Below are positions 14,176 to 60,432 of a stretch of 64,000 nucleotides of DNA, in pieces. Every line of letters begins with the position of its first letter. Positions within the stretch are counted from its first letter, which is position 1. The position numbers were made by a program, and so were the translations under genes. The notes below the pieces were generated by a model. It saw only the letters and a program-made list of their open reading frames with translations. It searched no databases and was not told the DNA's origin. The DNA is from Alphaproteobacteria bacterium. Its GTDB lineage: Bacteria; Pseudomonadota; Alphaproteobacteria; UBA7985. The stretch is taken from NCBI GenBank assembly GCA_964228455.1, contig CAXQZM010000070.1, positions 180 to 64,179 on the forward strand, in the 5' to 3' direction.

Positions 14176-14250
14176 TGCCCCCTATCCTGGCCTTAAGAGG
14201 ACATCTATAGGAAACCGACCTATGACCTCGACAATTGAGACATAAAGATC

Positions 14251-16326: not shown

Positions 16327-16810
16327 TCATCTTATCTTAGGAGGCCGAAGATCAGGAAAATCTGCTTTTGCAGAAGCTGAGGCTTTAGCGCTAAAGAAAC
16401 CCTTAACCTACATAGCTACATCTCGAGCATATGACAAAGATCATGCAGAACGCATAAATCTGCATCGACAGCGACGGCAGGGAGAGGGATGGACAGTTCA
16501 TGAATCTGGAGACCCAACAGAGCTCCAGGGTCACCTTAATTTAGCTTCAGGTGCTGTCCTAGTTGACTGCTTATCCATGTGGCTTAACAATATCTTTCTC
16601 GACAATATTGATATCCCACCCCTTACTCTTCCAGTCACTGATGCTTATCTCATCTTAGTCTCTACCGAGGTTGGATTAGGTATTCACTCGGAAACATCGT
16701 TGGGCCGCCGATATGCTGACAAGCTGGGCGAACTCAACCAGTCGATAGCAGCCCAAGCTGACAAAGTCAGTTTCGTTGCTGCAGGTCTAAATTTAAAACT
16801 AAAAGGCTAG
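16319..16810 (+). CDS. cobU: Adenosylcobinamide kinase / adenosylcobinamide-phosphate guanylyltransferase
   Basis: P-loop LILGGRRSGKSAFAE. About 160 aa, typical of CobU/CobP. Confidence 0.85.
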   Translation: MPSHLILGGRRSGKSAFAEAEALALKKPLTYIATSRAYDKDHAERINLHRQRRQGEGWTVHESGDPTELQGHLNLASGAVLVDCLSMWLNNIFLDNIDIPPLTLPVTDAYLILVSTEVGLGIHSETSLGRRYADKLGELNQSIAAQADKVSFVAAGLNLKLKG

Positions 16811-16812
16811 CA

Positions 16813-38494: not shown

Positions 38495-39358
38495 CTAGCT
38501 TTGCGTTTCCCTCCATTGGTCCAACATGTGCCGAGCAATGGTATTGCGCCTAGGAAAACCATAAGCTGGATCATTTTTGAGCCGCAATAAATCTTTATGA
38601 CTAAACCAATCTGCAGTCTCAAGCTCATCTGCATCAATTTGGATTTCCCAACTTGTAGCCACACAAGTAAATCCGACCATCAGAGAGCCTGATAAAGCCC
38701 ACGGTTGGCTAGCTAAATAAGTAACTTCTGACACATTCAACCCGACCTCCTCAATTGTTTCTCTTCGGACTGTATCTTCCAATGCCTCCCCTGGCTCTAC
38801 GTATCCTGCTAAAAGGGAGTGCAAGCCAGGCGGCATAAGCTTACTGTTTGCCAAGACTACCTTTTTTTTATCAGGGCTTAAAACAAGCATAATCACCGCT
38901 GGGTCTATCCTTGGATAGATGTCTGTCTTTGCTATCTCAGAACGCCGAGAACGCCCAAAATCTTGAAGTTCAGTTGGTGTTCCAGTCTTCGCGCAAAACC
39001 TGTTTTTAGCATGCCACCTGAGCATGTGCTGACCCTGGCAGAGGAGTGCCAGATGATCCTTAGGCACGCTATTCGGCAGCAACCAAAGGTCCGTTGGATC
39101 TCCTGGAAGCTCAACCAAATGACTTAGATCTTGAGCAAAAATTGCAACACCATTCCAATTTCCCAGAAACACTTGCAGCCCATTCGGGTCTGGTTTTACC
39201 CAGACTAGCATTTCTTGGTCAATCAATACACGTCCTTTAAAGTAACCTAGATATAGAGTTTCATCTAATGGCTCTCCGCGCTCTAAAAAACCGGCTGATA
39301 GAGGCATTAAGGGTGTAATATTGTCCATCTTCAACCAATTAGTTTTGAGAGCCATCAA
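38495..39358 (-). CDS. nudC: NAD+ diphosphatase NudC-like Nudix hydrolase
   Basis: Nudix box GYVEPGEALEDTVRRETIEEVG with upstream ...NRFCAKTG... (NudC-like). The zinc-ribbon cysteines are mostly absent. Confidence 0.75.
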   Translation of the reverse strand: MMALKTNWLKMDNITPLMPLSAGFLERGEPLDETLYLGYFKGRVLIDQEMLVWVKPDPNGLQVFLGNWNGVAIFAQDLSHLVELPGDPTDLWLLPNSVPKDHLALLCQGQHMLRWHAKNRFCAKTGTPTELQDFGRSRRSEIAKTDIYPRIDPAVIMLVLSPDKKKVVLANSKLMPPGLHSLLAGYVEPGEALEDTVRRETIEEVGLNVSEVTYLASQPWALSGSLMVGFTCVATSWEIQIDADELETADWFSHKDLLRLKNDPAYGFPRRNTIARHMLDQWRETQS

Positions 39359-39484
39359 CGCAAGTCAATGCCCGAAAATACAAGGTACGGTCTCGTATAA
39401 TCGCCAATAAAATAGGCACTACCCATCCACTTCCGTATAAAAAATTTGAAACAGATTTAATTGCTAGATGCGGAAAATTACGGA

Positions 39485-39578
39485 AAGCTGGCGAACGACC
39501 CGCGCTCCATCCCCTATGGCTGCTCCGTTCCCGGCCTGACCAGGTTCAGGGCAAAGCTCGTCCGCCGCCAACTTTCCT
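39485..39578 (-). ncRNA. ffs: Signal recognition particle RNA (4.5S-type)
   Basis: The minus strand reads CCUGGUCAGGCCGGGAACGGAGCAGCC. This matches the E. coli 4.5S domain IV sequence CCAGGUCAGGUCCGGAAGGAAGCAGCC, including the GGAA tetraloop and the AGCAG asymmetric-loop residues. G-rich 5' and 3' arms (GGCGGCGGACGAGC / GCGCGGGUCGUUCGCC) can pair. A sigma-70-like promoter sits just upstream. The ends are approximate. Confidence 0.65.
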
Positions 39579-39583
39579 CGCTC

Positions 39584-39613
39584 CATTCTATTGGTTTTAG
39601 TTAGAATCTCAAG
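39584..39613 (-). promoter_or_regulatory. Sigma-70-type promoter for ffs
   Basis: Minus strand TTGAGA-N16-TAGAAT placed about 7 nt before the predicted SRP RNA 5' end. It overlaps the upstream alternative GTG start of dnaX. Confidence 0.4.
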
Positions 39614-39651
39614 GGGTGTCTTTCCCAAATCAATCGACTAAGTATTTCTTC

Positions 39652-41340
39652 ATGGAATTGAGCTTAACTGGTGGATCAGACCAAAACACAAGCTATCGAG
39701 TTTTAGCGCGAAAATACCGACCGCGTGATTTCTCAACATTATATGGACAGGAGCCATTGGTAAAGACGCTAACCAATGCAATATCGTCTGGACGGCTTGC
39801 CCATGCCTTCATGTTGACAGGCGTAAGGGGCGTAGGGAAAACAACAACAGCAAGAATATTAGCAAGAGCGCTTAATTGCTCTGCGCCAGATGTAACAAAA
39901 CCAACGCCGGTGCCTTGCGGCAAGTGTGAAAACTGCTTGGCAATCCTAAAAGACCATCACCCCGACGTTCTTGAAATGGATGCAGCAAGCCATACTGGTG
40001 TTGATGACATTCGAGAACTTCAAAAATCTGTAGCTTACCGACCTAGTTTGGGCAGATTTAAAATATTTATCATTGATGAAGTTCACATGCTGTCCACTAA
40101 TGCGTTCAACGCCTTATTGAAAACATTAGAAGAGCCACCTGAGCAAGTGATCTTTATCTTTGCTACCACGGAGATTAAAAAAGTTCCGGTAACAGTTTTA
40201 TCTCGCTGCCAGCGCTTTGACTTGCGACGCATCGATATTGACGTTCTAACAAAACTATTCAGTCACGTAATTGGTGAGGAGAATCTTGAGGCCGAAGCTG
40301 AAGCGCTATCGATAATCGCACGCGCTGCAGATGGCTCCGCGCGCGATGGCCTATCAATCTTGGACCAAGCCATATCTCTGTCAGGGTCGCCCTTAACCGC
40401 GAAGGCTGTACAGGAGATGCTAGGACTGGCAGATCGGGCTCAAATTCTTGACCTATGTGAGCTTATCATGAGTGGTGACGTTCCCAAAACCTTGTTGTTA
40501 TTTGATAAGCTCTACCAGTCAGGCGCCTCACCTTTAAGCATTTTGACTGATCTTGCTGACTTTGTACATTGGATGACCAGGCTAAAGGTTGGCTCAGGTG
40601 CCGATGATCCAGGTTTAAGTGAAACGGCACGAAACAAAGGTCAGGAAATGGCTGACGCGTTGTCAATTGCCAACCTCGCTAGAAGTTGGCAGATCCTAAG
40701 TAAATCAATAATCGACGTTAAAGCTGCAGACCATCCAAAAGAGGCAGCAGATATGGCGCTTATACGATTGGTATACGCCGGCACCCTCCCTACTCCTGAC
40801 CAAATTTCAAAAAAGCTCTTGGGGGCGCCCCTTAAACGCCAGCATGCCAGCGATAAAGCATCACAAAAATCACCAAGTGATCCGGATATAAAGAAACCTC
40901 CTTTTGATCCTCTTCCAGGCAGCTCTGGCGCTGATCCAAACGTCCGCGCAATTCATGAGCTTAATCCGGACAAACAAAGACGAATTGAGAGTCTAGAGGA
41001 TATAATTGAAGCTTTGCTAATAGAACGCGAGCCTCTTTTAGCAGCTGATCTTCGAGCTTACGCCAGAGTCATTTCCATAATAGATGGTAACCTGATTCTT
41101 TCCAGAAACAGCAGAATCACTCGAGAACATCTCAACAAACTCTCGGCTCATTTACTGAAGTGGACAGGTTTTACTTGGCTTGTAACTCTAGCGGATGGTG
41201 ATGGGGGCCCGACATTGGCGGAAGCCCAGCATGCAGCAACCAAATCAAAAAAAGATGCAGCCGAAAATCACCCACTAGTCCAAGCAGCTCTGGAAGCCTT
41301 TCCAGATGCAAAAATGAGTGAAGTAGTCGTTATAGATTGA
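39652..41340 (+). CDS. dnaX: DNA polymerase III subunits gamma/tau
   Basis: YRVLARKYRPRDF...GVRGVGKTTTARILA Walker A, zinc module CGKCENC, box FIIDEVHMLS. Start set at the ATG 39652. A GTG at 39616 is the alternative. Confidence 0.85.
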   Translation: MELSLTGGSDQNTSYRVLARKYRPRDFSTLYGQEPLVKTLTNAISSGRLAHAFMLTGVRGVGKTTTARILARALNCSAPDVTKPTPVPCGKCENCLAILKDHHPDVLEMDAASHTGVDDIRELQKSVAYRPSLGRFKIFIIDEVHMLSTNAFNALLKTLEEPPEQVIFIFATTEIKKVPVTVLSRCQRFDLRRIDIDVLTKLFSHVIGEENLEAEAEALSIIARAADGSARDGLSILDQAISLSGSPLTAKAVQEMLGLADRAQILDLCELIMSGDVPKTLLLFDKLYQSGASPLSILTDLADFVHWMTRLKVGSGADDPGLSETARNKGQEMADALSIANLARSWQILSKSIIDVKAADHPKEAADMALIRLVYAGTLPTPDQISKKLLGAPLKRQHASDKASQKSPSDPDIKKPPFDPLPGSSGADPNVRAIHELNPDKQRRIESLEDIIEALLIEREPLLAADLRAYARVISIIDGNLILSRNSRITREHLNKLSAHLLKWTGFTWLVTLADGDGGPTLAEAQHAATKSKKDAAENHPLVQAALEAFPDAKMSEVVVID

Positions 41341-41341
41341 A

Positions 41342-42367
41342 TCAACGCCCGTCACCCCATCGGTCGTGCAGCCAAAACCAGTCAGCAGGACGCTCACGGA
41401 TCCAACGTTCAAGCAAGCTGTTATAGCGACTGAGAACGGCCTCTAAATCCTTATCATCACCCGGCATGAACAAATTTGGGTGAATGGTTAGATGAAAGTG
41501 CCCGTCATTTGCTTTCCGACGTAAATCTAGAGGTAAAATATGCGCTCCAAGACGCGCGCCAAGCTTCAATGGGATAATTGTGCTGCGCGCTGGGCGCCCA
41601 AAAAATGGCGCGTAAGTATTGCTTGCCCTTTGATCCAAAGCAACAATCAAAGCATGGCCTGAAAGCATGTCTCGACGCACATAGCCAACCGACATCCGAG
41701 CGGAACGCGGATAGAACCGAGAACCATTTCGTGTTCGACGATGAAGTTGTCTCCGCTGAATTGAAGGAATAGCTAGTGGAGAATATAAAGCGCACAGGCT
41801 ATTCCGCGTAACCTTCTCACCTAAGTCGAGCATAATCTCCCAATTAGCTTGATGTGCATGAACCAATATAATTGGCCTACCTTCAGAAATAGCTAGATCT
41901 ACGTTTTCTTGCCCTTCAATTGTTACCCGATCGAGCAAACACTCACTAAAGCGGTGATCATCTAAAAGCTCAAACGCAGTCTTCCCAAATTGACGAGCAA
42001 CTTGTCTTCGAGTATTTCTTAAGTCCGAAATTGAAGCCGCAGGGAAAGCGAGTCTTAACCGCCCCTCGACCGAGCGTCGTATAATAGGAATAATTGTAAA
42101 CAATAGCTGCGCTAAAGCAGAAAATAAGCTATAGCCAGTGGAACGCGGAATTACCCTTGCAATCAATGCCAAAGTTGAAAAAGCTTGAGCGCCTATTTGG
42201 TCGCGTCTTGAACCCTTACCACGCGCTTTTTCAAGGTTTGATTCATGAATGAGGCCAGATGTGACCCGCTGCTCAAGCTCATTCGCAATGTCCGCATCTG
42301 TTAATCTACGCCTACCGTTATTCATTAAACTTCTCAATAAAAGTTTGCCGCCAATCTCTAGCATCAA
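41342..42367 (-). CDS. Lysophospholipid/lipid A acyltransferase (LpxL/HtrB family)
   Basis: Acyltransferase HX4D-like region ILVHAHQANWE and a C-terminal WFWLHDRW typical of LpxL/HtrB-family proteins. Confidence 0.7.
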   Translation of the reverse strand: MMLEIGGKLLLRSLMNNGRRRLTDADIANELEQRVTSGLIHESNLEKARGKGSRRDQIGAQAFSTLALIARVIPRSTGYSLFSALAQLLFTIIPIIRRSVEGRLRLAFPAASISDLRNTRRQVARQFGKTAFELLDDHRFSECLLDRVTIEGQENVDLAISEGRPIILVHAHQANWEIMLDLGEKVTRNSLCALYSPLAIPSIQRRQLHRRTRNGSRFYPRSARMSVGYVRRDMLSGHALIVALDQRASNTYAPFFGRPARSTIIPLKLGARLGAHILPLDLRRKANDGHFHLTIHPNLFMPGDDKDLEAVLSRYNSLLERWIRERPADWFWLHDRWGDGR

Positions 42368-43034
42368 TTAGCATCAGATGGTCCCTCAAATAGCTTACTT
42401 TGCCCGTTACTAACTTCAGCGCTTCAGCGGCCATTATCTGAGCCACCAAATTTGCTAGTTGGCCCAGGACACCTTGTGCAGCGCAAGTCACTCTCGCGGA
42501 CGGTGCCTCAGGAAATATAGATGTAAAGCCTGGGCTCCCCGCTGAAAATACCGTGACCTGCGCGTCCATGCCTATTACAGAACCAAAGATAAGAGTTGTG
42601 CGTGATTGACGCAGTTTATCGATTTGAACTCGTGTTTCGTAGGTGTCGGTGCAATCAAGCCAAAGAGTGGCGTTGCTTCCTTCAAAATAATTTAAGTTGG
42701 TCTGGATACGGGTTTTTTTATTTCGGGAGTTGCACAAATCTTTAAGCGCCAAAACTTTTGGTGTGCCTATTTGATCTTCCATGTATGGTTGCCGGTGTAG
42801 GTTTGATAATTCTACCACATCTGGATCATAAAGCTCCAACTGCCCGATTCCTGACTGGGCCAATGTCAGTGCTGCATTAGCTCCCAAACCACCACATCCG
42901 ATGATGGCAACTTTTGCTTGAGCAATATCCAACTGACCAGTTGCACCTATCTCTGGCATCACCAACTGCCGAGCGTAACGCTCAATCTCTTCATCGCTGA
43001 ATTGGTCAATAATATCAGACACCTGTTGATCCAA
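42318..43034 (-). CDS. ThiF/MoeB-family adenylyltransferase (E1-like)
   Basis: [14 protein letters not shown]...[23 protein letters not shown]...[13 protein letters not shown] are the ThiF/MoeB signature. No rhodanese domain or CxxC pair is evident. Confidence 0.75.
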
Positions 43035-43452
43035 AACCGCCTACATTTCGACCTGTATTGCCCAACTCATCAACCACAGAAAACTCGACACGCGTAACCT
43101 CGCTGATAACGAGCTGAGCTATGCGAGCGCCTCTTTCAAACGATACGATTTCCTGGCCTAAATTAATCAGCGGAACTTTAATTTCACCTCTATAATCTGC
43201 ATCAATGGTACCTGGCGCGTTTATGACAGTTAAACCATGTTTGATCGCCAATCCGGACCGTGGACGTATTTGGCCCTCAAACCCCTCTGGGATCGCTATC
43301 GCAAATCCAGTTGAAACTAGCTTTCTATCTCCGGGCGCCAATTCAATATCTTCTGCAGAGCAAATATCTAACCCAGCACTCCCTGCCGTAGCATAAGTAG
43401 GAATATCCAGCCCAACTCCATTCGTCAGCCAACTGATTAAAATTTTGCTCAT
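43015..43452 (-). CDS. dut: dUTP diphosphatase
   Basis: dUTPase motifs [15 protein letters not shown] and [10 protein letters not shown]. 145 aa. dfp-dut linkage. Confidence 0.9.
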
Positions 43453-44615
43453 GATAGTTTCTTTATTATTTTTTCTACCAATTTAGATGCGACTTCTTCC
43501 TTTGATTGGATAGGCCATTGCTCAGGCTCCTCATCACCTAAAAACAATATTTGATTATCTCCTCCTCCAAATATTTGCGGCATCGCACCTACATCATTAG
43601 CCAAAAGCCAATTACATCCCTTGCGCACTCGTTTTTTCCAGGCATTTTCTGCTAAATTTTCAGTCTCTGCTGCGAAACCTATAGTTAAGGTTTTATCTGC
43701 TACCTCAGAGCAAAGGGTGGCTAATATGTCGGCTGTCGGCTTTAGGGTTAAGGCAAGATCGTGCCCTAATTTCTTTATCTTATTTGTTGCGAACTCGGTG
43801 GGAGTATAATCAGCCACAGCCGCTGCACATACCAATATATCAGCAGGTAATGCAGATTGTGCCGCCTTCAGCATAGAGGCGCCGCTTAACACGTCGACTT
43901 GATAGGTGCCGCGAGGGGGCATCAAATTCGTAGGCCCGGAAATTAGCGTTACTTCCGCACCTGCGCGAGAAAGAGCATCCGCAATTTCCCACCCTTGCTT
44001 CCCGCTAGAGTGATTTGACAAATAACGGACTGGATCAATCGCTTCGATTGTAGGTCCAGTAGTTACAATAGCGCTTTTACCACGTAATGGGAGATCACCT
44101 AACACCGCTTGCACCAGCTCGGAAATATCCGGCATTCGTCCTGGTCCGAACTCCCCACACGCCATTTCTCCGTGATCAGGCTCAATAAATGTATGTCCAT
44201 CATCATGAAGCCTTTTTATATTTCTTTGGGTCGCAGCATTTTGCCACATTCGATGGTTCATGGCCGGGGAAAAAATGGCAAATTTATCTGAAGCTAGCAG
44301 CACTGAGCTAGCCAGATCATCTGCTCGCCCATGGGCAATTTTAGCAAGAAAATCTGCACTGGCCGGCGCAACCAAAATACGATCAGCTTCCCGACTAAGC
44401 TTTATATGCCCCATCTCTCTTTCGTCTTTTAAATTCCATAAATCTTCGTAGACTGGATTCTCGCTAACTGCAGCCAGAGCTAGGGGGGTGACAAAATTTT
44501 TAGCTGCTTTTGTAAGCAAACACGTTACGTGCACGCCCTTTTCGCGAAGTCGACGAACCAGGTCGGGTGTTTTATAGGCGGCGATTCCACCTGTGACGAT
44601 AAGCAGCAAATGCAT
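43449..44615 (-). CDS. coaBC: Bifunctional phosphopantothenoylcysteine decarboxylase / phosphopantothenate-cysteine ligase
   Basis: N-terminal flavoprotein fold [12 protein letters not shown] plus a C-terminal CoaB domain. 388 aa. Confidence 0.9.
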
Positions 44616-45022
44616 TCCAGCTCCTTAACATTGCTACATGCGCATGACGATACCATCTATATAGAATGCGCTACCCTGGGCAGGGTCTATCACCCACAAG
44701 CAACACTCAGGCAATTTGATTATGGAAACAGTTATGTTCAACAGGAAACACCGTGGCAATTATAACCTTTCATGGCCCATGCCGAGTAACTGCGGCGGCT
44801 TAATAAGGACGATGCTTGAAATAACGGGTGAGCAAGAGCGTACCCACTTGAAGTGGGATACTTGTGATATGCTTCGTCAAAAAGCTGCTCCAAAACTCTT
44901 ATCTAAGCGGCGCACTAGAAGATCTTGAGCGACCCGCAATAGCTGAAGTTAGTTTAAATGCTAAGGTATACCATATAGTAAGAATTGCGCTACCAAAGCA
45001 CTTAATGTTCCTCACCAACACG

Positions 45023-46855
45023 CTAAGAATCCATTTTCAAAGCTGCGATAAAAGCACTTTGGGGTATATCTACGTTTCCTATAGACCGCATCCGCTTTTT
45101 ACCTTCTTTTTGCTTCTCTAGAAGCTTCTTCTTTCGCGTCGCGTCTCCGCCATAACATTTGGCTGTTACATCTTTGCGCAGCGCGGAAACGGTTTCCCTT
45201 GCTATCACTTTGCCACCAATCGCAGCTTGGATTGCTATTTTGAATAATTGACGAGGGATCAATTCTTTCAATTTTTCACAAAGTTGGCGACCTCTACTTT
45301 CAGCCTTTGTTCGATGAACCATCAGAGCAAGAGCGTCGATTGGATCCTGATTTACTAGAATATTTACCTTTACAAGATCACCTTCCTTGTTTCCGATTGG
45401 CTCATAGTTAAATGAGGCATAGCCCCTACTTACGGACTTAAGACGATCATAGAAATCGAAAACAACCTCGTTAAGCGGCAACTCATATTCCAGCATAGCT
45501 CGTGAACCTGCGTAAGTAAGCTGCTTTTGAATCCCGCGCCTATCCTCACATAGTTTTAGAATGGGACCCAAATAATCATCAGGGACCAAAATAGTGGCCT
45601 TAATCCAAGGCTCCTCGATGAAATCAACCTTCTGGACCTCTGGCATGTCCACTGGATTATGCATCAATTGCTGAGTACCATCGGTTAAATGAAGATTGTA
45701 AACTACTGATGGCGCCGTCGTAACAAGATCTAGGTTGAACTCTCTACTCAACCGCTCTTGAATAATTTCAAGATGGAGCAGCCCTAAAAAACCACAGCGG
45801 AAGCCAAAACCTAGTGCAGCAGAGCTTTCTGTTTCAAAATGAAACGACGCATCGTTAAGAGCCAATCTTTCAAGGCTATTCCTAAGCTCATCGAACTGAG
45901 CAGCATCAGAAGGATAAAGACCACAGAAAACAACTGGCACTGACGGCTTGAACCCGGCGAGAGGCTCGTGTGCAGGTTTCCGTTCATCAGTAATTGTATC
46001 CCCAATTTGACAGTCTGAAACATTTTTTATGCCAGCCGTGATGTAACCTAGCTCTCCAGTCTTAAGAATTTTTCCCTCAACTCTTTCGGGGCGAAACACG
46101 CCTATGCGGTCAATATCGTAGGATGCCTTAGAGTCCATTAGACGGATCTTCTGACCTTTTCTTAATGTCCCCTCCATAACCCTCACGAGAATAATAACAC
46201 CAAGATAGGCATCATACCAAGCATCCACTAGCAATGCTTGAGTTCTTGCTTCGGGGTCACCGCCAGGAGCCGGCACAAGGTCAATAATTTGCTGTAGTAC
46301 TTCCGGGACACCTGCTCCTGTTTTACCAGAAACAGCTAGAGAATCAGATGTATCCAGTCCTATAACCTCTTCAATCTGTTCCTTAACTTGCTCTGGTTCC
46401 GCAGCCGGCAAATCAATTTTGTTGAGTACAGGTATTATTTCATGATTATTATCGAGAGCTAAATATACGTTGGCTAATGTTTGTGCCTCCACACCTTGCG
46501 AAGCGTCAACAAGTAGTATTGAGCCCTCACAAGCGGATAAAGAACGAGAGACTTCATACGCAAAATCAACATGTCCAGGCGTATCAATCAGGTTCAGCGC
46601 ATACAAATCGCCATCATCTCCAGTATATTCAATGCGAACAGAGTTTGATTTAATTGTAATACCTCGCTCACGTTCTAGCTCCATCGAGTCAAGAACTTGG
46701 TCCTTCATTTCTCGCTCAGACAAAGTTCCAGTAAGCTGTATCATCCGGTCAGCTAACGTAGATTTCCCGTGATCAATATGAGCTATAATCGCGAAGTTCC
46801 GAACACGCTCCTGAGGAACGTCAGTGATAGTAGAAGAGTTGGAGAGGTTAGACAT
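45023..46855 (-). CDS. lepA: Elongation factor 4
   Basis: G domain [26 protein letters not shown] and NKID, plus a LepA-specific C-terminus. Start set at the ATG giving MSNLSNS. The ORF in the track extends to 46891. Confidence 0.9.
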
Positions 46856-47011
46856 TGCCGCGGCTTTAAGCGGCAGCGCTAATTTGAGCAAGAGAGTGGT
46901 TGTCGCGGCTAGCCATAATATTTGAGATCTGACTTAAATTGCTTTCTGTAATACAAAGAATTTATGTGGGGTTTGACTTGTTTAAAGCAAAAAACATGCC
47001 ATCTATAAAGT

Positions 47012-48304
47012 ATGGTGCTTACTCCCTCCTTAGGTCTTAAGCAGCGTCAACGTCTTGGTTTGACACAAGAAATAAAGTCGTCTCTTCAATACCTGGCACT
47101 GGCGGGGCTTCGATTAGAACAAGCCCTTACAGATGTTTTAGATTCTAACCCATTTCTGTCAGTTCGAAGCACGCACCCAATTCATAGCGAAGCTGATTGG
47201 TTGACAAATTTAGCTTCACCTGGACCTGAGTCTATCGCAACGGCTCTTCGCCTGTTGGCTACCGACTTATTTTGGACGCCAGAAGACAAATTTCTAAGCG
47301 ATATGCTCATTGATGAGGTCGGCGATAATGGCTTACTAGAGTTGCCCCTTGCTGACATTGCTGAAGATAATCGTATTGAGCTAGACCGGCTCAGACCGAT
47401 TCAGGACAAGTTTCTGGCTGAAGGCGGTTTGCTTGCTGACAATTTAGGCCATAGCCTAAGCGCACAAGCCGTTGCAAAGGTTCAAGTTGGTGACTGGCCA
47501 AACGAAGTTTTGGCTGAGGTACTAGAGGCATGTGACCTTTTAGACTTGATAGCATGCGGTGAGTTCACGCCAAATGCAAAAATTCTCGACCTAGTGCGAA
47601 CCCTTAACCCCCGGCCGGCCGATAATTTAGACTTAGAAGCTGCCGTAATTATACCGCCAGATCTCATTGTTGAAGAGTATGAAAATAACTGGCGCATAAG
47701 CCTAAATCCGCTGACGAATAGAGCCTACGAATTAGATGTTGATGCGCTAGGTGGTTTGAGTCCCAATGAGCAAAAGCAACCAAATATCGCTGAACCAATA
47801 AAAACTGCAAAAAGTACCGTAAGAGCACTGAAGGCACGTAAGCAAACTTTGGTTAATCTTGGTTATTTTCTGTGTAAAAAACAAGATGCTGCGCTTCGCC
47901 ACGGAAGAGCGCAACTGTCACCACTTACTCAAATGGACGCTGCAGAAGCGTTAGATTGTCATTCCTCCACTATATCGCGGGCTGTCGCAGGAAAAACGAT
48001 TCAAACCCCACAAGGGGTTTGGCCTTTAAGAGATTTTTTTTCTGCACTAATTGATCCCAACTCACTCTTATCAGGAGCCCAGCTGCGAGCGTGGCTTACA
48101 GAGACCATCTTTGAAGAAAATCGAACTGCTCCAATGTCGGATGCTGAGTTAGCAATTAAATTATCTGAACTTGGGCATGAGGTTGCTCGACGTACAATCA
48201 CAAAATACCGTCTTCATATAGGCTTGCCGGGTGCAGCGGCTCGGCGACGCCTATACTCTAGACGGTCACCAAATTTTAAAACATATAAGAAAGGGAAACT
48301 ATGA
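47012..48304 (+). CDS. rpoN: RNA polymerase sigma-54 factor
   Basis: N-terminal Gln/Leu-rich activator-interacting region (LKQRQRLGLTQEIKSSLQYLAL) and the C-terminal RpoN box ARRTITKYR. Followed by hpf. 430 aa, which is short for sigma-54. Confidence 0.85.
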   Translation: MVLTPSLGLKQRQRLGLTQEIKSSLQYLALAGLRLEQALTDVLDSNPFLSVRSTHPIHSEADWLTNLASPGPESIATALRLLATDLFWTPEDKFLSDMLIDEVGDNGLLELPLADIAEDNRIELDRLRPIQDKFLAEGGLLADNLGHSLSAQAVAKVQVGDWPNEVLAEVLEACDLLDLIACGEFTPNAKILDLVRTLNPRPADNLDLEAAVIIPPDLIVEEYENNWRISLNPLTNRAYELDVDALGGLSPNEQKQPNIAEPIKTAKSTVRALKARKQTLVNLGYFLCKKQDAALRHGRAQLSPLTQMDAAEALDCHSSTISRAVAGKTIQTPQGVWPLRDFFSALIDPNSLLSGAQLRAWLTETIFEENRTAPMSDAELAIKLSELGHEVARRTITKYRLHIGLPGAAARRRLYSRRSPNFKTYKKGKL

Positions 48305-48867
48305 AACTCACAATTGAAGGCCACCAAGTCCAAATGTCTCCCGTTCTCAATGAGAGAGTTGAAGCCTCTTTAGATGGTATTTTTGAAAAATATTTTGGGG
48401 ACGCTGTCTCAGCACAAGTCTTGTTCAGGCGCTCAGGGCATGGCTTCTCAGCACACCTGGAGACACATGTTGGAAAGCACATACATCTTGCCTCAGAGGG
48501 AAAAGCTGGTGATGCTTATAGCGCATTTGATTTAGCGGCTACTCGATTAGCGAAGCGACTCAGGCGGCACAAACGTAAATTACGAGATCATCATGCTGAT
48601 TTGGATGGTAGAAAAGTCCTCGAGGCTCGCGGTTTCGTTCTGGAGGCTGCGCCAGAAGAAGAACCAGAGGAAACCACGCCAGATGCGCCAACAGTTATTG
48701 CAGAAACCCCAACCCTAATTCCCACACTAAGTGTAGCGGAAGCTGTGATGCATCTTGATTTAAGTGATCAGCCAGCGCTCATGTTTCATAATGTTAACCA
48801 TGGTGGTTTGAATATGGTTTATGAAAGAACAGATGGCCACATATCCTGGGTAGATCCTCAAGAATAA
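48301..48867 (+). CDS. hpf: Ribosome hibernation promoting factor (long form)
   Basis: MKLTIEGHQVQMSPVLNERVEASL...FKRLRRHKRK matches the YfiA/HPF fold. Sits directly after rpoN. Confidence 0.85.
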   Translation: MKLTIEGHQVQMSPVLNERVEASLDGIFEKYFGDAVSAQVLFRRSGHGFSAHLETHVGKHIHLASEGKAGDAYSAFDLAATRLAKRLRRHKRKLRDHHADLDGRKVLEARGFVLEAAPEEEPEETTPDAPTVIAETPTLIPTLSVAEAVMHLDLSDQPALMFHNVNHGGLNMVYERTDGHISWVDPQE

Positions 48868-48950
48868 GTCAGTGCAGCAGTAGACTTGCCATAAAGTAGC
48901 CTCAGAGTTAGGGCTTAAACAGAATGAACATAGAGGGGAGCAGCACGCTC

Positions 48951-49724
48951 ATGCAGTTTAGTTTTCGAGCTTCAATGGCCTTAACTTTGATTTGCTGTGG
49001 AAATCTTGCAGTTGCACAGTCACAAGCACTCACGCCAGGTGCGGCGGCCATCGGCGGTACAACAACCAGTACTCAGTTAATTGGACCAGGAGGATCCTTG
49101 GTTCCGATTAGAGCCGCTCCCAATGCAGAGGACACTTCTCAGACCTCTACTCAAATAACCACAGGTGAAAGTAGCCTTCGCAGCTCCGATCAAAGTGAAC
49201 CAGTAGTGCTCCCAGCTGATCGGACTCAAGAAGCTACTGCTACTGAAACATCTGAACAAACGAGTGCACCAGAGAAAATTGAAGAGCCAAAAACTGTAGA
49301 AACAAGCATCCCTCAACCTCCTGAGAACGCCGAGACATCGCAAATTACGGCAGGCGCCACGCCAACGACCGCACCAGCAGCTGAAGATGATGAGGCAGGC
49401 GCGCTAAACCCTATTAATACTTTCGAACCAGCCCGCCTTGATTTTGGTAACGAGGGTATTGCATTAACAGCTCAACACGAAATTGCTCTTGACCCAATTG
49501 CAGCTCTTATGAGAGCAAATCCACTTATGCCGCTCCAAATCATTGCGGTGCTGCCACTCTCCGAAGCAACAAGCGACGAGGCAAAACAGAAAGCACGGAG
49601 AAGAATACTTGCTGTTCGAAGCAATCTAATTTCACGTGGGCTTAGCGCAGATAATCTGACATTTGTAATATCCGCCAATACAGAGTCGGAGCCTTTTGCT
49701 AACTTTATCCTTATTGAACGCTAA
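48951..49724 (+). CDS. Secreted protein with Ser/Thr/Glu/Pro-rich linker and degenerate OmpA-like C-terminal domain
   Basis: Signal peptide MQFSFRASMALTLICCGNLAVA-QS, then about 110 aa of low-complexity T/S/E/P-rich sequence. The C-terminal 100 aa (ARLDFGNEGIALT...ILAVRSNLISRGLSADNLTF) follows the OmpA C-domain spacing but lacks the GHTD core motif. Start set at the ATG 48951, preceded by GAGGGGAG. The stop overlaps the next gene (TAATG). Confidence 0.55.
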   Translation: MQFSFRASMALTLICCGNLAVAQSQALTPGAAAIGGTTTSTQLIGPGGSLVPIRAAPNAEDTSQTSTQITTGESSLRSSDQSEPVVLPADRTQEATATETSEQTSAPEKIEEPKTVETSIPQPPENAETSQITAGATPTTAPAAEDDEAGALNPINTFEPARLDFGNEGIALTAQHEIALDPIAALMRANPLMPLQIIAVLPLSEATSDEAKQKARRRILAVRSNLISRGLSADNLTFVISANTESEPFANFILIER

Positions 49725-50836
49725 TGATCATACTTGCCCGCCCACTCATTTTAATATTCATCGCACTAGCTGCGCTTTTAACGATTTTAAGTCTTCAGTT
49801 CGGTCCAATTAGCGCATTTTTCGCAGAAAATTTGGTGATAAATAGCCTGATTTTAGGCGTTTTCATAATTGGGCTATTTTTATCATTCTGGCGGCTTTCA
49901 GCTCTTGCATTCGAAATTACTTGGATCGATCGGATTAGAAATGCCACACAAGCCAGCGATGCAGATGAATTAGCTGGCCCTAGGGTAGTTGCGCGCCTGC
50001 ATATGCTTGCGGCATTTGCAAATGTCTGGCGCCGATTTTTTGATTCCAGTCAAGCTCTAACCCCCGATCTCGCAACAACTTTAGTTGACTCGGCCCAAAA
50101 TCGACTTGATGAGCGAAGAGAGCTCTCTCGCTACCTTGCTAATGCCTTGCTAATTCTAGGTTTGCTAGGAACTTTCTGGGGTCTTCTTGGTGCATTAATT
50201 GGAATGCGTGAGGCACTTGGAAATCTCGATGCTCAACAAGATTTCTTTACGGGTCTATCTAGCTCGCTGTCAGCGCCTTTAGAAAGCATGGGCACTGCGT
50301 TTTCATCTACCTTATTTGGTCTGGCTGCTTCGCTTTTGTTTGGGTTCATTGAACTTCAGACCACTCGCGCGCATTCTGCATTTTTGGAAAATTTTGAAGC
50401 CTGGCTTGCTACTTTTATGCAGACAACAGAACTTGCTTCAGATGACAACAAACATCCGATGTCAGCAAAACCGCGTCCATCGATAGAGCCAAATGCAAAT
50501 ATAGAGACGCTTGGTCACCTAATGCGGCGGGGTCAGCAAGATACTATGGTCTTGAACAATAACCTCGTGAGTCTTTTAGATCAGATAACTCGCGTTGCTG
50601 ATAAAGTAGAAGCAAACCACCTAGTTCACGAAAAGATACTCTCATCTCAGATGACTAATGAGCAGCTTATTGATAAAATTGAGGTTTTAGTGGATACTTT
50701 GACAATAGAAAAACAAACAGATTCTTTATCGGGCATTGATAATAGGATTGTAGCAACTGCAGAAAGCATAGAGCCAAACGATTACAAAGATCCCGCAGAT
50801 GATGCTGCCGCGGACTCGAGTAAAGACGAAAGTTAG
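49724..50836 (+). CDS. MotA/TolQ/ExbB-family proton-channel protein with C-terminal hydrophilic tail
   Basis: Four TM segments. TM3 contains LGLLGTFWGLLGALIGM, the MotA_ExbB signature. A C-terminal stretch of about 140 aa is polar and coiled-coil-like. Confidence 0.7.
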   Translation: MIILARPLILIFIALAALLTILSLQFGPISAFFAENLVINSLILGVFIIGLFLSFWRLSALAFEITWIDRIRNATQASDADELAGPRVVARLHMLAAFANVWRRFFDSSQALTPDLATTLVDSAQNRLDERRELSRYLANALLILGLLGTFWGLLGALIGMREALGNLDAQQDFFTGLSSSLSAPLESMGTAFSSTLFGLAASLLFGFIELQTTRAHSAFLENFEAWLATFMQTTELASDDNKHPMSAKPRPSIEPNANIETLGHLMRRGQQDTMVLNNNLVSLLDQITRVADKVEANHLVHEKILSSQMTNEQLIDKIEVLVDTLTIEKQTDSLSGIDNRIVATAESIEPNDYKDPADDAAADSSKDES

Positions 50837-50842
50837 GCTACC

Positions 50843-52033
50843 GTGGCGCGGAGACGCAGCATCAATGGGGAGCTTAATGTTTGGCCTGCTTTTGTGGATG
50901 TCCTCGCGACACTACTTCTCGTCATTATTCTATTGGTGCTAGCAGTTACGCTTACTCAATTTTATACAGCAAATCGGGCTTCCGGATTAGAGCGTATAGG
51001 AGATCAACTCAGCGATCAGCTAGAGCAGCGAGTAAGACAATTAACCGCATTACAACAGGAACGTGAGAGCCTAATTCGAGAAGGGGATGACCTTAGAAGT
51101 AATGTGGGTGAGTTAACTTATCAGGTGAACACACAGTCAAATGAAATAGACGAACTCCAGATTCTACGCGATCAATTATTTGCCCAAATTGCTCTTCAAG
51201 CTGATGAACTTAACGTTCTGAAGAGTGAGCAAATAGAGTTGACCAATAATAGCGAAGCAGCTGAGAAAGCGGTGGAAGATCTTCTGCTTAAACTTGCTGA
51301 AATAGAAGGCGGGGATGTTGATCTTGAAGGCGGCTTGCTAACTGTATTAGGACAAATGGACGATAAACTAGAACGACTGCTTAACGTTCTTTCGAATGCA
51401 GAGAGGGAACGCAAAAATGCGGAAAATCAGCGCGCAGCCGCAGAAAATGAACTTGCAGAACTTGATGCCAATAACTTTATCCTTCTTGCCGAAAATGAGG
51501 GCTTAAGAGCTAATTTAGAAACGCTAAGCTTAAGCGAGAGGCTTAACGACTCATTGCTTATAGAAGCGGAGGAACTTGGTCGCCAGCGCTCCGCTTTCTT
51601 CGCTAATTTGATTGAAGTATTAGGGGAGCGTGATGATGTCTCAGTTGTTGGTGATCGATTTGTCTTCCAATCCGAGGTTTTGTTTGATTCTGGCTCTGCC
51701 AGGCTAGGAATTAGTGGTGAAGCACAACTTACACGCCTTGCTGAAACGATAATGTCTTTAGCCTCAGACTTCCCATCTGACTGGATTTTAAGAGTTGATG
51801 GCCATACCGATGCAAGACCCATTTCGCCTAGTTCTAGAAGCCGTTATCAGAATAACTGGCAGCTTAGTTCAGAGCGGGCTCGTTCTGTTGTAGAGTCACT
51901 AATTGCACAAGGGGTGCCACCAAACCGGCTTGTTGCAGCTGGCTTTGGAGAGCACCAACCCCTAATCGATGAAGACACCCCAGAAGCTTTAGCTAAAAAT
52001 CGTCGTATTGAGCTCAAACTAACAACGCGATGA
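50843..52033 (+). CDS. MotB-like protein with long coiled-coil linker and C-terminal OmpA peptidoglycan-binding domain
   Basis: N-terminal TM with MotB/TolR-type Asp (WPAFVDVLATLLLVIILL). About 230 aa of heptad-like Leu/Glu/Gln-rich sequence. OmpA domain with FQSEVLFDSGSARL...RVDGHTDARP...NWQLSSERARSV...NRRIEL. Confidence 0.7.
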   Translation: MARRRSINGELNVWPAFVDVLATLLLVIILLVLAVTLTQFYTANRASGLERIGDQLSDQLEQRVRQLTALQQERESLIREGDDLRSNVGELTYQVNTQSNEIDELQILRDQLFAQIALQADELNVLKSEQIELTNNSEAAEKAVEDLLLKLAEIEGGDVDLEGGLLTVLGQMDDKLERLLNVLSNAERERKNAENQRAAAENELAELDANNFILLAENEGLRANLETLSLSERLNDSLLIEAEELGRQRSAFFANLIEVLGERDDVSVVGDRFVFQSEVLFDSGSARLGISGEAQLTRLAETIMSLASDFPSDWILRVDGHTDARPISPSSRSRYQNNWQLSSERARSVVESLIAQGVPPNRLVAAGFGEHQPLIDEDTPEALAKNRRIELKLTTR

Positions 52034-52067
52034 AGTCTTACACATCCTACAATTTTTTCGGAGCGAG

Positions 52068-52658
52068 CTAAGCTTCCTTTCGCCCGCGCAAAGCGCTGGC
52101 CAAAGTGCCTTCATCCAAATACTCAACTGCTCCGCCTACTGGCAAACCCTGCGCCAACTTAGTAATTTTCAAGCCGCTTGCCTTCAGTAAATCCTGAATA
52201 AAATGCGCGGTCGACTGTCCTTCTACAGTCGCTGATAATGCTAGAATCACTTCTTTGAGGTCTCCGCGGCTAACGCGTTGTTTTAGGGATTCAGTACTCA
52301 GCAAGTCCGGTGTCACCCCATCTAACGCAGAAAGCCGACCCCCTAGAACATGGTAAAGTCCCTTATAGGTTTGCGCTCTCTCCAAAGCCCAAACGTCCGC
52401 AACCTGCTCAACAACACACACAATGCCTACGTCGCGCCCGATATCTCGGCACACACGGCAAACTGATGCAGAATCTAGGTTACCGCACTCAATACAGGGT
52501 TGAACATCGTTCGCAACTCGAGCCAGTGTGCTGGCCAAAGGCATCATTAAGTCGGTTTTCCGCTGGAGCAAGTTAAGCGCCATCCTCCTTGCCGACCGAG
52601 GGCCAACCCCTGGCAACCTAGATAATAGGTTTATAAGTTCATCTATCTGAGAGATCAA
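52068..52658 (-). CDS. recR: Recombination protein RecR
   Basis: Helix-hairpin-helix LPGVGPRSARRMA, C4 zinc finger CIECGNL...CRVC, and a Toprim domain. 196 aa. Confidence 0.9.
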   Translation of the reverse strand: MISQIDELINLLSRLPGVGPRSARRMALNLLQRKTDLMMPLASTLARVANDVQPCIECGNLDSASVCRVCRDIGRDVGIVCVVEQVADVWALERAQTYKGLYHVLGGRLSALDGVTPDLLSTESLKQRVSRGDLKEVILALSATVEGQSTAHFIQDLLKASGLKITKLAQGLPVGGAVEYLDEGTLASALRGRKEA

Positions 52659-52661
52659 AAT

Positions 52662-52994
52662 CTAGAATCCTAGCCCACCGGGTAGTTTGAGACCGCCTGT
52701 GATTGACTGCATTGAGTCGGCAGCTACTTGTTCAGCTTTTTTCTGCGCATCATTCACAGCCGCTACGATTAGATCTTGAAGCATATCAGGATCCTCTGGA
52801 TCAATAAGAGATGAATCAATTTTAAGAGCCTTAAGTGCGCCTTTGCCGGTGGAAGTTGCCTCCACTAAACCGCCACCTGAGTTTCCTGTTACCTCGAGCT
52901 CATCTAATTTCTCTTGAGCTTCCTGCATTTTAGCCTGCATTTGCTGCGCTTGCTTCATCATTGCCTGCATATTTTTCATTGAAGGGTTCTCCAT
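52662..52994 (-). CDS. ybaB: Nucleoid-associated protein YbaB/EbfC
   Basis: MQAMMKQAQQMQAKMQEAQEKL N-terminus typical of the YbaB family. 110 aa. Immediately upstream of recR. Confidence 0.9.
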   Translation of the reverse strand: MENPSMKNMQAMMKQAQQMQAKMQEAQEKLDELEVTGNSGGGLVEATSTGKGALKALKIDSSLIDPEDPDMLQDLIVAAVNDAQKKAEQVAADSMQSITGGLKLPGGLGF

Positions 52995-53039
52995 TTAATC
53001 TTTGTAGTCGACGTAAGGGATTTGTAGCTCGAAGAAAAG

Positions 53040-53114
53040 TGGCTGGCGCGGCAGGATTCGAACCTGCAATCTACGGTACCAAAAACCGGTGCCTTACCAT
53101 TGGGCCACGCGCCA
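53040..53114 (-). tRNA. tRNA-Gln (anticodon TTG)
   Basis: Minus strand reads UGGCGCGUGGCCCAAUGGUAAGGCACCGGUUUUUGGUACCGUAGAUUGCAGGUUCGAAUCCUGCCGCGCCAGCCA. It is near-identical in its core (AAGGCACCGGUUUUUG.UACCG) to E. coli tRNA-Gln(UUG). Acceptor pairs UGGCGCG/CGCGCCA. CCA is encoded. Confidence 0.8.
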
Positions 53115-57794: not shown

Positions 57795-59216
57795 TTGTTC
57801 CAAGGACTTTCGGAAAGATTAGAAGGTGTATTCGGCGGACTCCGTCGGAAGGCCAGGTTAACTGAGGCCGACGTAACCGCCGCCTTGCGCGAAGTTCGTC
57901 TTGCTTTGCTGGAGGCGGATGTAGCATTGCCAGTGGTTAAAGACCTTATGGCTCGCGTTAAAGAGGCTGCCGTAGGTGCTAACCTCGTTAAGAAAATTTC
58001 CCCAGATCAGTTAGTTGTAAAAATAGTTAACGACGAACTTGTCAAAACATTGGGTGATACGATCCATCCCCTCACAGAAGCCAGCGCGCCTCCAACCATT
58101 TTTTTAATGGCTGGTCTACAAGGATCGGGTAAAACAACAACTTCGGCTAAGCTTGGGCTAAAATTTACAAAAGATCGTAAACGGGTTTTGCTGGCATCAT
58201 TGGACACTCGCCGTCCTGCTGCTCAAGAACAACTAAAAATTTTAGGGAAACAGACCGGAGTTAACAGCCTGCCGATTGTACCAGGAGAGACGCCGCTTCA
58301 GATTGCAAAGCGTGCTCAAACAATAGCGGCGCTTGAAGGCTACGACATACTTATCTTGGACTCCGCTGGGCGGCTCTCGATTGATGATGAATTAATGAAC
58401 GAGCTAGTTGGTGTTCGCGACGCTACCGCTCCGCACGAAACACTTCTTGTTGCAGATGCAATGACTGGTCAAGATGCGGTTAATACCGCGAAAATATTTG
58501 AAGAGCGAATAGGGGTAACGGGTCTAGTTCTAACGCGAGTGGACGGGGACGCGCGAGGAGGTGCAGCCCTTTCTATGAGGGCCATAACCGGTAAGCCAGT
58601 CAAGCTTCTCGGCACAGGTGAAAAAATGGACGCGCTTGAGGAGTTTCACCCAACTCGCATTGCGTCTCGCATCCTAGGCATGGGCGATGTAGTATCACTC
58701 GTTGAGAAAGCACAGGAACTTCAGGAAGAAGGTGAAGCGGAACGGTTGCAGGCAAAACTTTCTAAAGGTCAGTTCGACTTGAATGATATGGCAGACCAAA
58801 TGAAAAAAATTTCAAAGCTCGGTGGCATTGGTGGGCTTATGTCTATGATGCCTGGCATGGGTGGCATGAAAAAACAATTAGAGGCCGCCAAAGACCAGAT
58901 AAATGATAAAGTGGTGTCTCGACAGCTTGCTATGATCTCATCCATGACCCCAGGTGAAAGAGCTAAGCCCGAAATTTTAAAGGCTAAGCGCAAGCAACGC
59001 ATAGCCTCAGGGTCCGGTACGTCGGTGGCAGATCTCAACAAATTGCTAAAGCAACATCAGGGTATGGCCAAAATGATGAAAAAGGTCAGCAAACAATCTC
59101 GAAGAGGCGGAATGCCACAAATGCCCTCAGAACTCGAAGTTGGAGACCTCTCCCAACTCGGAAACCTGAAAGGCCTGACAGGCAAATTGCCTAAAGGCTT
59201 TCCATTCAAACGCTAA
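57795..59216 (+). CDS. ffh: Signal recognition particle protein Ffh
   Basis: N domain, G domain (MAGLQGSGKTTTSAKLG, DTRRPAA, DSAGR) and a Met-rich M domain (MMPGMGGMKK). TTG start at 57795, preceded by GAGG. Confidence 0.9.
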   Translation: MFQGLSERLEGVFGGLRRKARLTEADVTAALREVRLALLEADVALPVVKDLMARVKEAAVGANLVKKISPDQLVVKIVNDELVKTLGDTIHPLTEASAPPTIFLMAGLQGSGKTTTSAKLGLKFTKDRKRVLLASLDTRRPAAQEQLKILGKQTGVNSLPIVPGETPLQIAKRAQTIAALEGYDILILDSAGRLSIDDELMNELVGVRDATAPHETLLVADAMTGQDAVNTAKIFEERIGVTGLVLTRVDGDARGGAALSMRAITGKPVKLLGTGEKMDALEEFHPTRIASRILGMGDVVSLVEKAQELQEEGEAERLQAKLSKGQFDLNDMADQMKKISKLGGIGGLMSMMPGMGGMKKQLEAAKDQINDKVVSRQLAMISSMTPGERAKPEILKAKRKQRIASGSGTSVADLNKLLKQHQGMAKMMKKVSKQSRRGGMPQMPSELEVGDLSQLGNLKGLTGKLPKGFPFKR

Positions 59217-59240
59217 ATCCAACAAAAAAGGAAGACAAAC

Positions 59241-59630
59241 ATGGCACTAAAAATTCGTTTAGCACGAGCAGGGGCAAAAAAACGCCCATACTACCGCGTC
59301 GTCGTGGCTGATAGCCGCATGCCTCGCGATGGTCGCTTTATCGAGCGTGTGGGTTCATATAACCCAATGGTCCCTAAAGATCATGACGAGCGGCTTACGT
59401 TAGATGGCGAAAAAATTGCGGAATGGGTGGAAAAAGGAGCTCGACCAACCGACCGAGTTGCGCGATTGATGTCACAGGCTGGATTAGGTGAGGCTCCAGC
59501 CATTCCCCAGCAAACTAAGCAAAATCAGCCCAAGAAAAAAGCCCAAGAACGCGCTGAGGAAAAGGCACAAAAAGTAGCAGAAGCAGCGGCAGCTGAAGAA
59601 GCACCAGCTGAAGAAGCGCCAGCTGAGTAA
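59241..59630 (+). CDS. rpsP: 30S ribosomal protein S16 (with Ala/Glu/Pro-rich C-terminal extension)
   Basis: [26 protein letters not shown] is the canonical S16 N-terminus. C-terminal tail [25 protein letters not shown]. Confidence 0.9.
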
Positions 59631-59670
59631 ACAAAAATAGTACACGCCGAAACATTAGTGGCGCGGTTGT

Positions 59671-59712
59671 CTCCTGATTATTTAACCGAGGTAATTAGGA
59701 GACTATTTTTTA
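59671..59712 (+). terminator. Rho-independent terminator after rpsP
   Basis: CTCCTGATTAtttaaccgaggTAATTAGGAG, a 10-bp stem with one G.U, followed by actatttttt. Confidence 0.5.
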
Positions 59713-59835
59713 TCCTGAGTAAACTTTTGAGGCACGATTCTATGAAATTAGATTGCGGAAACTGTTTGTCTCATCTCAGATAGAGCTAAATTAGCGACCC
59801 TTGACCTTGAGGCTCTGGTTGCCCACTTTCGATTA

Positions 59836-60390
59836 ATGAACATGAGCACTGATCAAACTATGCATGCCACAACTATCCTAACGGTTAGAAAAGGCAATCA
59901 AATTGTGGTCGCTGGAGACGGACAAGTTTCGATGGGCCCCACGATCGTAAAAGGCACTGCGCGCAAAGTAAGAAGGCTAGGAAAGACAAACGAAATCATT
60001 ACAGGTTTTGCCGGAGCGACTGCTGACGCGTTCACGCTATTTGAATTGCTGGAATCCAAGCTAGAAAAACACAGTGGCCAATTGATGCGAGCAGCTGTTG
60101 AATTAGCAAAAGAATGGCGACAAGACCGAATGCTACGGAGGCTGGAGGCATTACTAATTGTCGTCGACAAGGAGCATAGTTTAATGATTTCTGGAACGGG
60201 GGATGTGCTTGATTCGGAAGATGGCATCATAGCGATTGGATCAGGTGGAAACTATGCGCTCGCCGCCGCCCGAGCACTTTCAGATCAAGATATGACTGCG
60301 GAGGAGATAGCTCGTAAGGCCATGAAAATCGCTGGAGATATCTGTGTGTACACTAATCATAGCCTAGTTATTGAGACCATTAACCTCTAA
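59836..60390 (+). CDS. hslV: ATP-dependent protease subunit HslV
   Basis: [21 protein letters not shown] with catalytic Thr after a short N-terminal extension, and GSGGNYA. 184 aa. Confidence 0.85.
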
Positions 60391-60432
60391 CCCGACAGTA
60401 CGCCTGTAACGCGACCAAACGAAATTATTCTT

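Follow-up and report, generated by a model that had tools for sequence, protein, structure and literature searches.

The 64-kb stretch of alphaproteobacterial DNA considered here (contig CAXQZM010000070.1, positions 180 to 64,179; hereafter the window) carries a broken version of the cluster nudC'-ffs-dnaX-ybaB-recR, a prime after a gene name denoting opposite orientation in this and all later gene-order strings. The dnaX gene, which encodes the gamma/tau subunits of DNA polymerase III, is followed by an unrelated convergent gene, the small signal recognition particle (SRP) RNA gene ffs in front of it is inverted, and ybaB-recR lies 11.3 kb further on, on the opposite strand. The break is real, and is probably an old and stably inherited one, which came about in several steps in an uncultured alphaproteobacterial clade. 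The several rearrangements involved would be of different ages, as is suggested by junctions that the window shares with a distant relative beside others seen in its own species only.

The ancestral arrangement and its disruption

Bacillus subtilis has scr-dnaX-yaaK-recR, an order that follows the same logic as the alphaproteobacterial cluster. Escherichia coli has dnaX-ybaB-recR (PMC9610160). For Alphaproteobacteria, an outgroup set of at least 80 loci with 51-59% RecR identity was gathered by scanning the species representatives of GTDB with a RecR alignment, and synteny was counted in the 70 listed loci with at least 2.6 kb upstream of recR; all outgroup counts given here and below hold among the matches listed. 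The genes dnaX, ybaB and recR are contiguous and co-directional in 57/70 loci, with median gaps of 105 nt (dnaX-ybaB) and 66 nt, and dnaX lies at most 4.5 kb from the recR locus in 60/70. A minus-strand NUDIX gene stands upstream of dnaX in 35 of the 57 canonical loci. With a covariance model made from the clade's ffs genes, ffs was located just upstream of dnaX and on the same strand in 58/59 outgroup loci, a placement that Rfam confirmed independently in six of them. Judged from these gene orders, ffs-dnaX-ybaB-recR can be regarded as the ancestral alphaproteobacterial arrangement, and the linkage assumed in the original prediction thus holds for the class.

Measured against the consensus nudC'(-) ffs(+) dnaX(+) ybaB(+) recR(+), the window retains the NUDIX gene, ffs and dnaX as neighbours and ybaB-recR as an adjacent, tightly spaced pair (3-nt spacer, both genes on the minus strand), but ffs is inverted, the pair is antiparallel to dnaX and 11.3 kb downstream, and a convergent lpxL-like gene follows dnaX. 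A MotB-like gene follows recR, an order found in 0/80 outgroup loci; in the same 0/80, rpoN, hpf, MotAB-like genes or the lepA block stand after recR. The left flank of the window (NUDIX', ffs, dnaX) is thus the ancestral one, and the break falls exactly at the 3' end of dnaX, where the lpxL-like gene takes the place of ybaB 1 nt beyond the stop codon. The gene names, coordinates and strands first given for the block from dnaX to tRNA-Gln were borne out by an open reading frame (ORF) listing, ARAGORN, Rfam, NCBIfam and Pfam, on which the following layout is based.

38495-39358, minus: NUDIX (NudC-like) hydrolase, left neighbour of ffs and dnaX (Pfam NUDIX, 1.6e-16)
39483-39573, minus: ffs, small SRP RNA (Rfam RF00169, 54.5 bits)
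39616/39652-41340, plus: dnaX, DNA polymerase III gamma/tau (NCBIfam PRK09111, 726 bits; 100% match to P0001)
41340-41342: junction 1, dnaX stop and lpxL-like stop, convergent, 1 nt apart (ORF coordinates)
41342-42367, minus: lpxL-like acyltransferase, Lip_A_acyltrans (NCBIfam)
42318-43034, minus: ThiF/MoeB-family gene (NCBIfam)
43015-43452, minus: dut (NCBIfam)
43449-44615, minus: coaBC (NCBIfam)
44716-44928, plus: small ORF between coaBC and lepA, without Pfam match
45023-46891, minus: lepA (NCBIfam)
46892-47011: junction 2, spacer between the divergent lepA and rpoN
47012-48304, plus: rpoN (NCBIfam, below the equivalog cut-off)
48301-48867, plus: hpf
48924-49724, plus: secreted protein without family
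49724-50836, plus: MotA/ExbB-like protein
50843-52033, plus: OmpA/MotB-like protein with coiled coil
52068-52658, minus: recR (TIGR00615)
52662-52994, minus: ybaB (TIGR00103)
52995-53039: junction 3, 45-nt spacer between the ybaB start and the 3' end of tRNA-Gln (from the sequence)
53040-53114, minus: tRNA-Gln(UUG), directly upstream of and co-directional with ybaB-recR (ARAGORN; Rfam tRNA, 63 bits)

Gene order in the uncultured clade

Relatives from the same clade have DnaX proteins 62-73% identical to that of the window, the next sequences, from the nearest named and Rhodospirillales-like taxa, being at ~50%; RecR and LepA identities drop across the same gap. In a neighbour-joining tree of DnaX built from identity distances the clade has 100% support. 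Two of the relatives are represented by long contigs: genome A, a 3.25-Mb contig (L004 around dnaX, L009 near ybaB-recR, L097 with the lepA block), and genome B, the 2.38-Mb ENA ERZ25068043 ctg12646 (L005/L096 and L012), which has a strain variant, ctg12233. The clade's members were not among the matches listed by the GTDB scan with RecR, all of which were outgroups; a JGI metagenome scan with RecR gave a best match of 57% and no clade member, a GTDB scan with RpoN recovered no relatives, and no exact match to the window's YbaB was on record.

In none of the four informative clade relatives (0/4) does ybaB follow dnaX; ybaB and recR still form an intact pair in all relatives. The supposition that dnaX and ybaB-recR are linked in this particular lineage therefore had to be given up. 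What follows dnaX varies. Genome A reads NUDIX' ffs' dnaX and then DUF1491' mnmE' rho' hemJ' hemE'; L006 reads parA parB ffs' dnaX and then DUF4411' M78' purH'; genome B and its strain variant read L28' ffs' dnaX and then lpxL-like' ... thiF' coaBC' ... lepA', as in the window. In genome A the lepA-coaBC-dut-thiF-lpxL block is not next to dnaX, being found at 2.073-2.079 Mb and followed by rlmH'; dnaX is at 2.299 Mb and ybaB-recR at 2.852 Mb, 552 kb away on the same strand. The lepA...lpxL block, dnaX and dsbA-ybaB-recR of genome A all lie on one strand, with a cobalamin cluster before dsbA-ybaB-recR and mmcB' lysS' dinG after it.

Genome B holds both halves of the window's segment, in separate places. 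At ~196-207 kb it carries rpoN hpf X motA-like motB-like (X being the third gene of the block) and then recR' ybaB' ppdK' glyS' glyQ', and at ~305-316 kb SDR SDR lepA ... coaBC thiF ... lpxL-like and then dnaX' ffs L28. The five-gene block from rpoN to motB that abuts recR there (L012) matches the window at 57, 78, 42, 54 and 58% identity with the order kept. Divergent ffs/dnaX, dnaX|lpxL'-thiF'-coaBC'-lepA' and rpoN-hpf-X-motA-motB|recR'-ybaB' are thus common to the window and genome B, but in genome B 111 kb separates the two blocks, whose orientation to each other is the opposite of that in the window. There dnaX and ybaB are consequently on the same strand in canonical order, and ppdK rather than tRNA-Gln stands upstream of ybaB. 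The lpxL...lepA block of genome B lacks dut and has gained small ORFs and two N6/N4 DNA methyltransferase genes (L005 13345-14220 and 16929-17912; L096 12524-13384 and 16037-16912).

The inverted ffs gene

According to Rfam, ffs lies immediately upstream of dnaX in the window on the minus strand, divergent from dnaX. The original prediction started from an SRP RNA gene co-directional with dnaX, as in many bacteria, which is true of the outgroups (58/59) but not of the window; the left part of the cluster thus departs from the canonical order too. The same opposite orientation is found in all five clade lineages, namely the window, genomes A and B, L006 and L007 (ffs at L004 9729-9825, L005 9693-9784, L006 2571-2661 and L007 9805-9896), and the position of ffs is constant whether a NUDIX gene, L28, parB or an unknown gene lies upstream. 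By this comparison, the ~100-nt gene was flipped in place, a clade-wide and clade-defining micro-inversion. A sigma-70-like site matching at 10/12 positions on the minus strand (39612-39585) fits this orientation; it lends weak support, scan counts for such sites not being above those in shuffled sequence.

Junctions of different ages

Junction ages were read against the DnaX tree, which unites the window and genome A with 98% support and places genome B outside that pair. The junction dnaX|lpxL' is common to the window and genome B including its strain variant (L005, L096), and so is motB|recR'. Because both are shared with a genome that branches outside the pair of the window and genome A, both predate, on this tree, the common ancestor of the three, and genome A has lost both. 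The other two junctions are seen in the window's own species only. For lepA'|rpoN (46.9-47.0 kb), this includes the independently assembled contig L001; in genome B, SDR genes adjoin lepA, and uvrA and others adjoin rpoN, in genome A a giant adhesin gene adjoins lepA, and in the relative with 93% LepA identity (L093-95) lepA lies between an ABC transporter gene and ffh-rpsP-hslV. For ybaB'|tRNA-Gln' (53.0 kb), the gene before ybaB is ppdK in genome B and dsbA in genome A, with other genes in L011, and no tRNA gene was found within 10 kb of ybaB-recR in genomes A and B, L008 or L011. The 11.7-kb interior accordingly consists of two blocks, lpxL...lepA and rpoN...motB, each conserved separately.

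These distributions bear directly on the idea that a single inversion ran from the end of dnaX to tRNA-Gln. Such an inversion would make both of its junctions at once, and since those at 41.34 and 53.04 kb are unequally distributed, the pattern calls for a minimum of two or three events. The split of the cluster, the antiparallel ybaB-recR pair and the geometry on which the idea rested all stand; the common age of the ends and the unity of the interior do not, and tRNA-Gln is unsupported as an inversion end-point, the ybaB'|tRNA-Gln' junction being absent from genomes A and B and L011.

The course of events that fits best includes the flip of ffs in place, common to the whole clade. By the time of the last ancestor that the window lineage shared with genomes A and B, dnaX had already lost its downstream ybaB; dnaX|lpxL' and rpoN-hpf-X-motA-motB|recR'-ybaB' are each at least as old as that ancestor. 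The junctions seen in the window's species only, lepA'|rpoN and ybaB'|tRNA-Gln', join the two old blocks and leave ybaB-recR antiparallel to dnaX. Because dnaX and ybaB-recR are co-oriented in genomes A and B and antiparallel in the window, at least one inversion was presumably involved. The window-like and B-like orders do differ by an inversion with its near end at lepA|rpoN, and the junctions confined to the window's species would bracket the 6-kb rpoN...ybaB block (47.0-53.0 kb) rather than all 11.7 kb.

An alternative, which is unlikely though it deserves serious consideration, places one local inversion in the stem lineage, running from just after dnaX to just before the upstream neighbour of ybaB, with the window retaining its product and genomes A and B, L006 and L093 departing from it through later rearrangements. 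The geometry fits exactly; dnaX|lpxL' at the near end and recR|motB in the interior are old junctions; and the distance between dnaX and ybaB-recR, 11.3 kb here against 111 kb in genome B and 552 kb in genome A, reads as a drifting apart. The far junction, however, is not conserved (ppdK or dsbA precedes ybaB in genomes B and A, with no tRNA gene nearby), the interior lepA'|rpoN is absent from genomes A and B and L093, and the pre-inversion order that would be required, recR, motB'...rpoN' lepA...lpxL, occurs in 0/80 outgroup loci. To account for tRNA-Gln against ppdK, the window lineage or genome B would have to have undergone one further event or more; a stem inversion would mean that tRNA-Gln was acquired later, or else that ppdK was acquired in genome B. 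The uninverted order was found in none of the clade relatives compared, the GTDB scan (matches listed) and the JGI scan containing no clade member. A tblastn search of the window and the outgroup loci with genes found near dnaX or recR in genomes A and B (mnmE, rho, hemE, mmcB, lysS, dinG, ppdK, glyQS and rlmH), aimed at the direction of change, gave no informative matches.

Several points weigh against an old break in multiple steps. With only three long relatives to compare, either the window-like or the B-like order may have come first. The 11-kb proximity of dnaX and ybaB-recR argues that the window may retain the product of an original local event, the chance of finding the pair so near dnaX being 2 x 11.7 kb / ~3 Mb, or ~0.8%, an estimate that takes its genome size from the relatives' 2.4-3.3-Mb contigs. 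The phylogeny consists of single-protein neighbour-joining trees, of which that for LepA has poor resolution within the clade, and the junctions confined to the window's species were checked in few lineages. The statements on promoters made below are inferential, with a consensus scan not above chance.

Tests for recency, misassembly and a mobile island

Inversions between repeats (rRNA genes, tRNA genes or insertion sequences (IS)) or symmetric around the origin are a well-known class of bacterial rearrangement, and tRNA genes are known recombination end-points. The window shares with that class a split operon, an antiparallel part and a tRNA gene at one junction, but differs from it in that its junctions are without repeats and unequal in age and require several events.

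A recent inversion specific to the strain or species, with ends at the dnaX 3' end and tRNA-Gln and possibly mediated by short inverted repeats, would explain the geometry and agree with the general behaviour of tRNA genes; on all other counts it fares badly and is very improbable. The dnaX|lpxL' junction is present in a relative whose DnaX is no more than 62% identical. Inverted and direct repeats between 38.5 and 54.5 kb amount to chance-level pairs, none of which convincingly joins 41.3 to 53.0 kb; the best inverted pair near the segment ends is 19 nt at 79%, and the short inverted repeats that were to be looked for near 41.34 and 53.0-53.1 kb are therefore wanting above chance level. When guanine-cytosine (GC) skew at 4-fold sites is taken on the plus strand and split into replication and coding-strand parts, the replication part comes to -0.072 within 41.3-53.0 kb and -0.063 outside; a fresh inversion would leave ~+0.06 within the segment, about 3 standard errors from the observed value. 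The stops of dnaX and the lpxL-like gene, 1 nt apart and convergent, indicate a long-compacted junction. With an old shared junction, no repeats and unreversed skew, a recent inversion was rejected.

That the contig is chimeric might be suspected of any metagenome-assembled genome (MAG), from which the window comes, and misassembly had been raised from the start as a possibility to be excluded. Three independent Logan assemblies from different runs (L001-L003) carry dnaX|lpxL at ~100% protein identity, and the 28.6-kb contig L001 runs from sdh genes through dnaX, lepA and rpoN to the motB-like gene at 99-100%. In a separate NCBI MAG, DnaX (MGB0784817.1) and RecR (MGB0784806.1) are encoded on the same contig of 113,578 nt, 11 accessions apart, a spacing that would match the number of genes between dnaX and recR in the window. 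Composition is uniform, with a GC content of 0.44-0.48. Independent assemblies thus concur in the same order; an artefact is extremely improbable and was rejected.

A mobile or tRNA-targeted island inserted between dnaX and ybaB-recR could account for tRNA-Gln at one end of the segment with its 3' end facing inwards. An insertion would not invert ybaB-recR, however, and the genes concerned (lpxL, thiF, dut, coaBC, lepA, rpoN, hpf) are of the housekeeping kind. NCBIfam and Pfam revealed no integrase, transposase or recombinase in the segment, and the 64-kb window has no second, direct-repeat copy of the tRNA-Gln 3' end. Given this gene content, the missing attachment site (att) copy and the uniform GC content, the island was likewise rejected as highly unlikely.

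Consequences for transcription

In E. coli and Borrelia, ybaB/ebfC has promoters in front of dnaX or within it (PMC9610160). In the window dnaX would be read alone, from a promoter back-to-back with that of ffs to its end at the convergent gene, and this promoter would have to lie in the 40-75 nt between dnaX and the divergent ffs. The ybaB-recR pair, by analogy with E. coli and Borrelia, would be separated from its dnaX-internal promoter source. Because a dnaX-borne promoter would be gone, ybaB-recR should need either read-through of transcripts started at the promoter of tRNA-Gln or a new promoter within or close to the 45-nt spacer, which are the likeliest sources of its transcription. A consensus scan for promoters and terminators gave counts not above those in shuffled sequence.

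The MotAB-like module and neighbouring genes

Directly downstream of rpoN-hpf and abutting recR lies a three-gene module (48924-52033, plus strand) that encodes a secreted protein without family, a MotA/ExbB-like protein of 370 aa and, with a long coiled coil, a MotB/OmpA-like protein of 396 aa. The module is kept in genome B (L012 10551-13544) at 42-58% identity, again next to rpoN-hpf. PADLOC found similarity to ZorA and ZorB, none of it outside the MotA domain (residues 134-238) and the MotB/OmpA domain. In contrast to Zorya, whose ZorA has a long C-terminal tail, the MotA-like protein has 370 aa where the ZorA profiles have 505-1063 positions, and no Zor effector genes (ZorC/D or ZorE) are adjacent. 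With similarity at domain level only, a short MotA-like protein, no effectors and conservation beside rpoN-hpf, an assignment to the Zorya anti-phage system was rejected.

The rpoN gene of the window is short (430 aa; NCBIfam 208.7 bits against an equivalog cut-off of 277). Proteobacterial rpoN usually has lptB in front; in the window it is without lptB and divergent from lepA, and unrelated genes precede it in genome B. The small ORF between coaBC and lepA (~57-70 aa) has a counterpart of 54% identity in genome A (L097 11951-12139), and a similarly placed small ORF occurs in genome B (L096 13527-13700).

Further from the segment, ffh-rpsP-hslV-hslU lies at 57.8-61.7 kb of the window (57795-61740, plus strand), separated by 11 kb from the lepA 5' end, and ffh-rpsP-hslV is directly downstream of lepA in the relative with 93% LepA identity (L093 12187-14724). 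As lepA is flanked differently in the window and in L093, both of its flanks are breakpoints within the clade. An eight-gene cobalamin-biosynthesis cluster of the window (12200-18706) is collinear with the one that directly precedes dsbA-ybaB-recR in genome A (L009 949-7702), a further tie between the window and the ybaB-recR neighbourhood.

In relatives, dnaX stands beside the usual markers of the origin region, mnmE-rho-hemJ-hemE in genome A (L004 11753-16276) and parA-parB in L006 (700-2393); none of these genes was found in the window. Origin-proximal inversions might lie behind the fluid gene order. Cumulative GC skew in the window drops from ~8 kb onwards, is lowest near 57 kb and climbs thereafter, the switch at ~56-58 kb coinciding with a change of coding strand, which makes it poor evidence for an origin or terminus.

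Implications

What the window documents is how chromosomal rearrangement of an ordinary kind broke up, in one lineage, a conserved cluster that is well known. Its practical value is modest, and no new mechanism or system is revealed. That the window keeps the primary product of a local inversion in the stem lineage, the one that broke the cluster, is rather unlikely; if it does, that product and the ffs flip would be two rare genomic changes, synapomorphies defining a deep uncultured clade and recording an unusually fluid gene order around dnaX in the origin-proximal region. As an old break in several steps, the finding means that in the whole of one uncultured alphaproteobacterial clade a cluster is broken that often passes for near-universal, that ybaB-recR can presumably do without a promoter inside dnaX, and that the inverted ffs can be used, together with dnaX|lpxL', as a rare-genomic-change marker for the clade.

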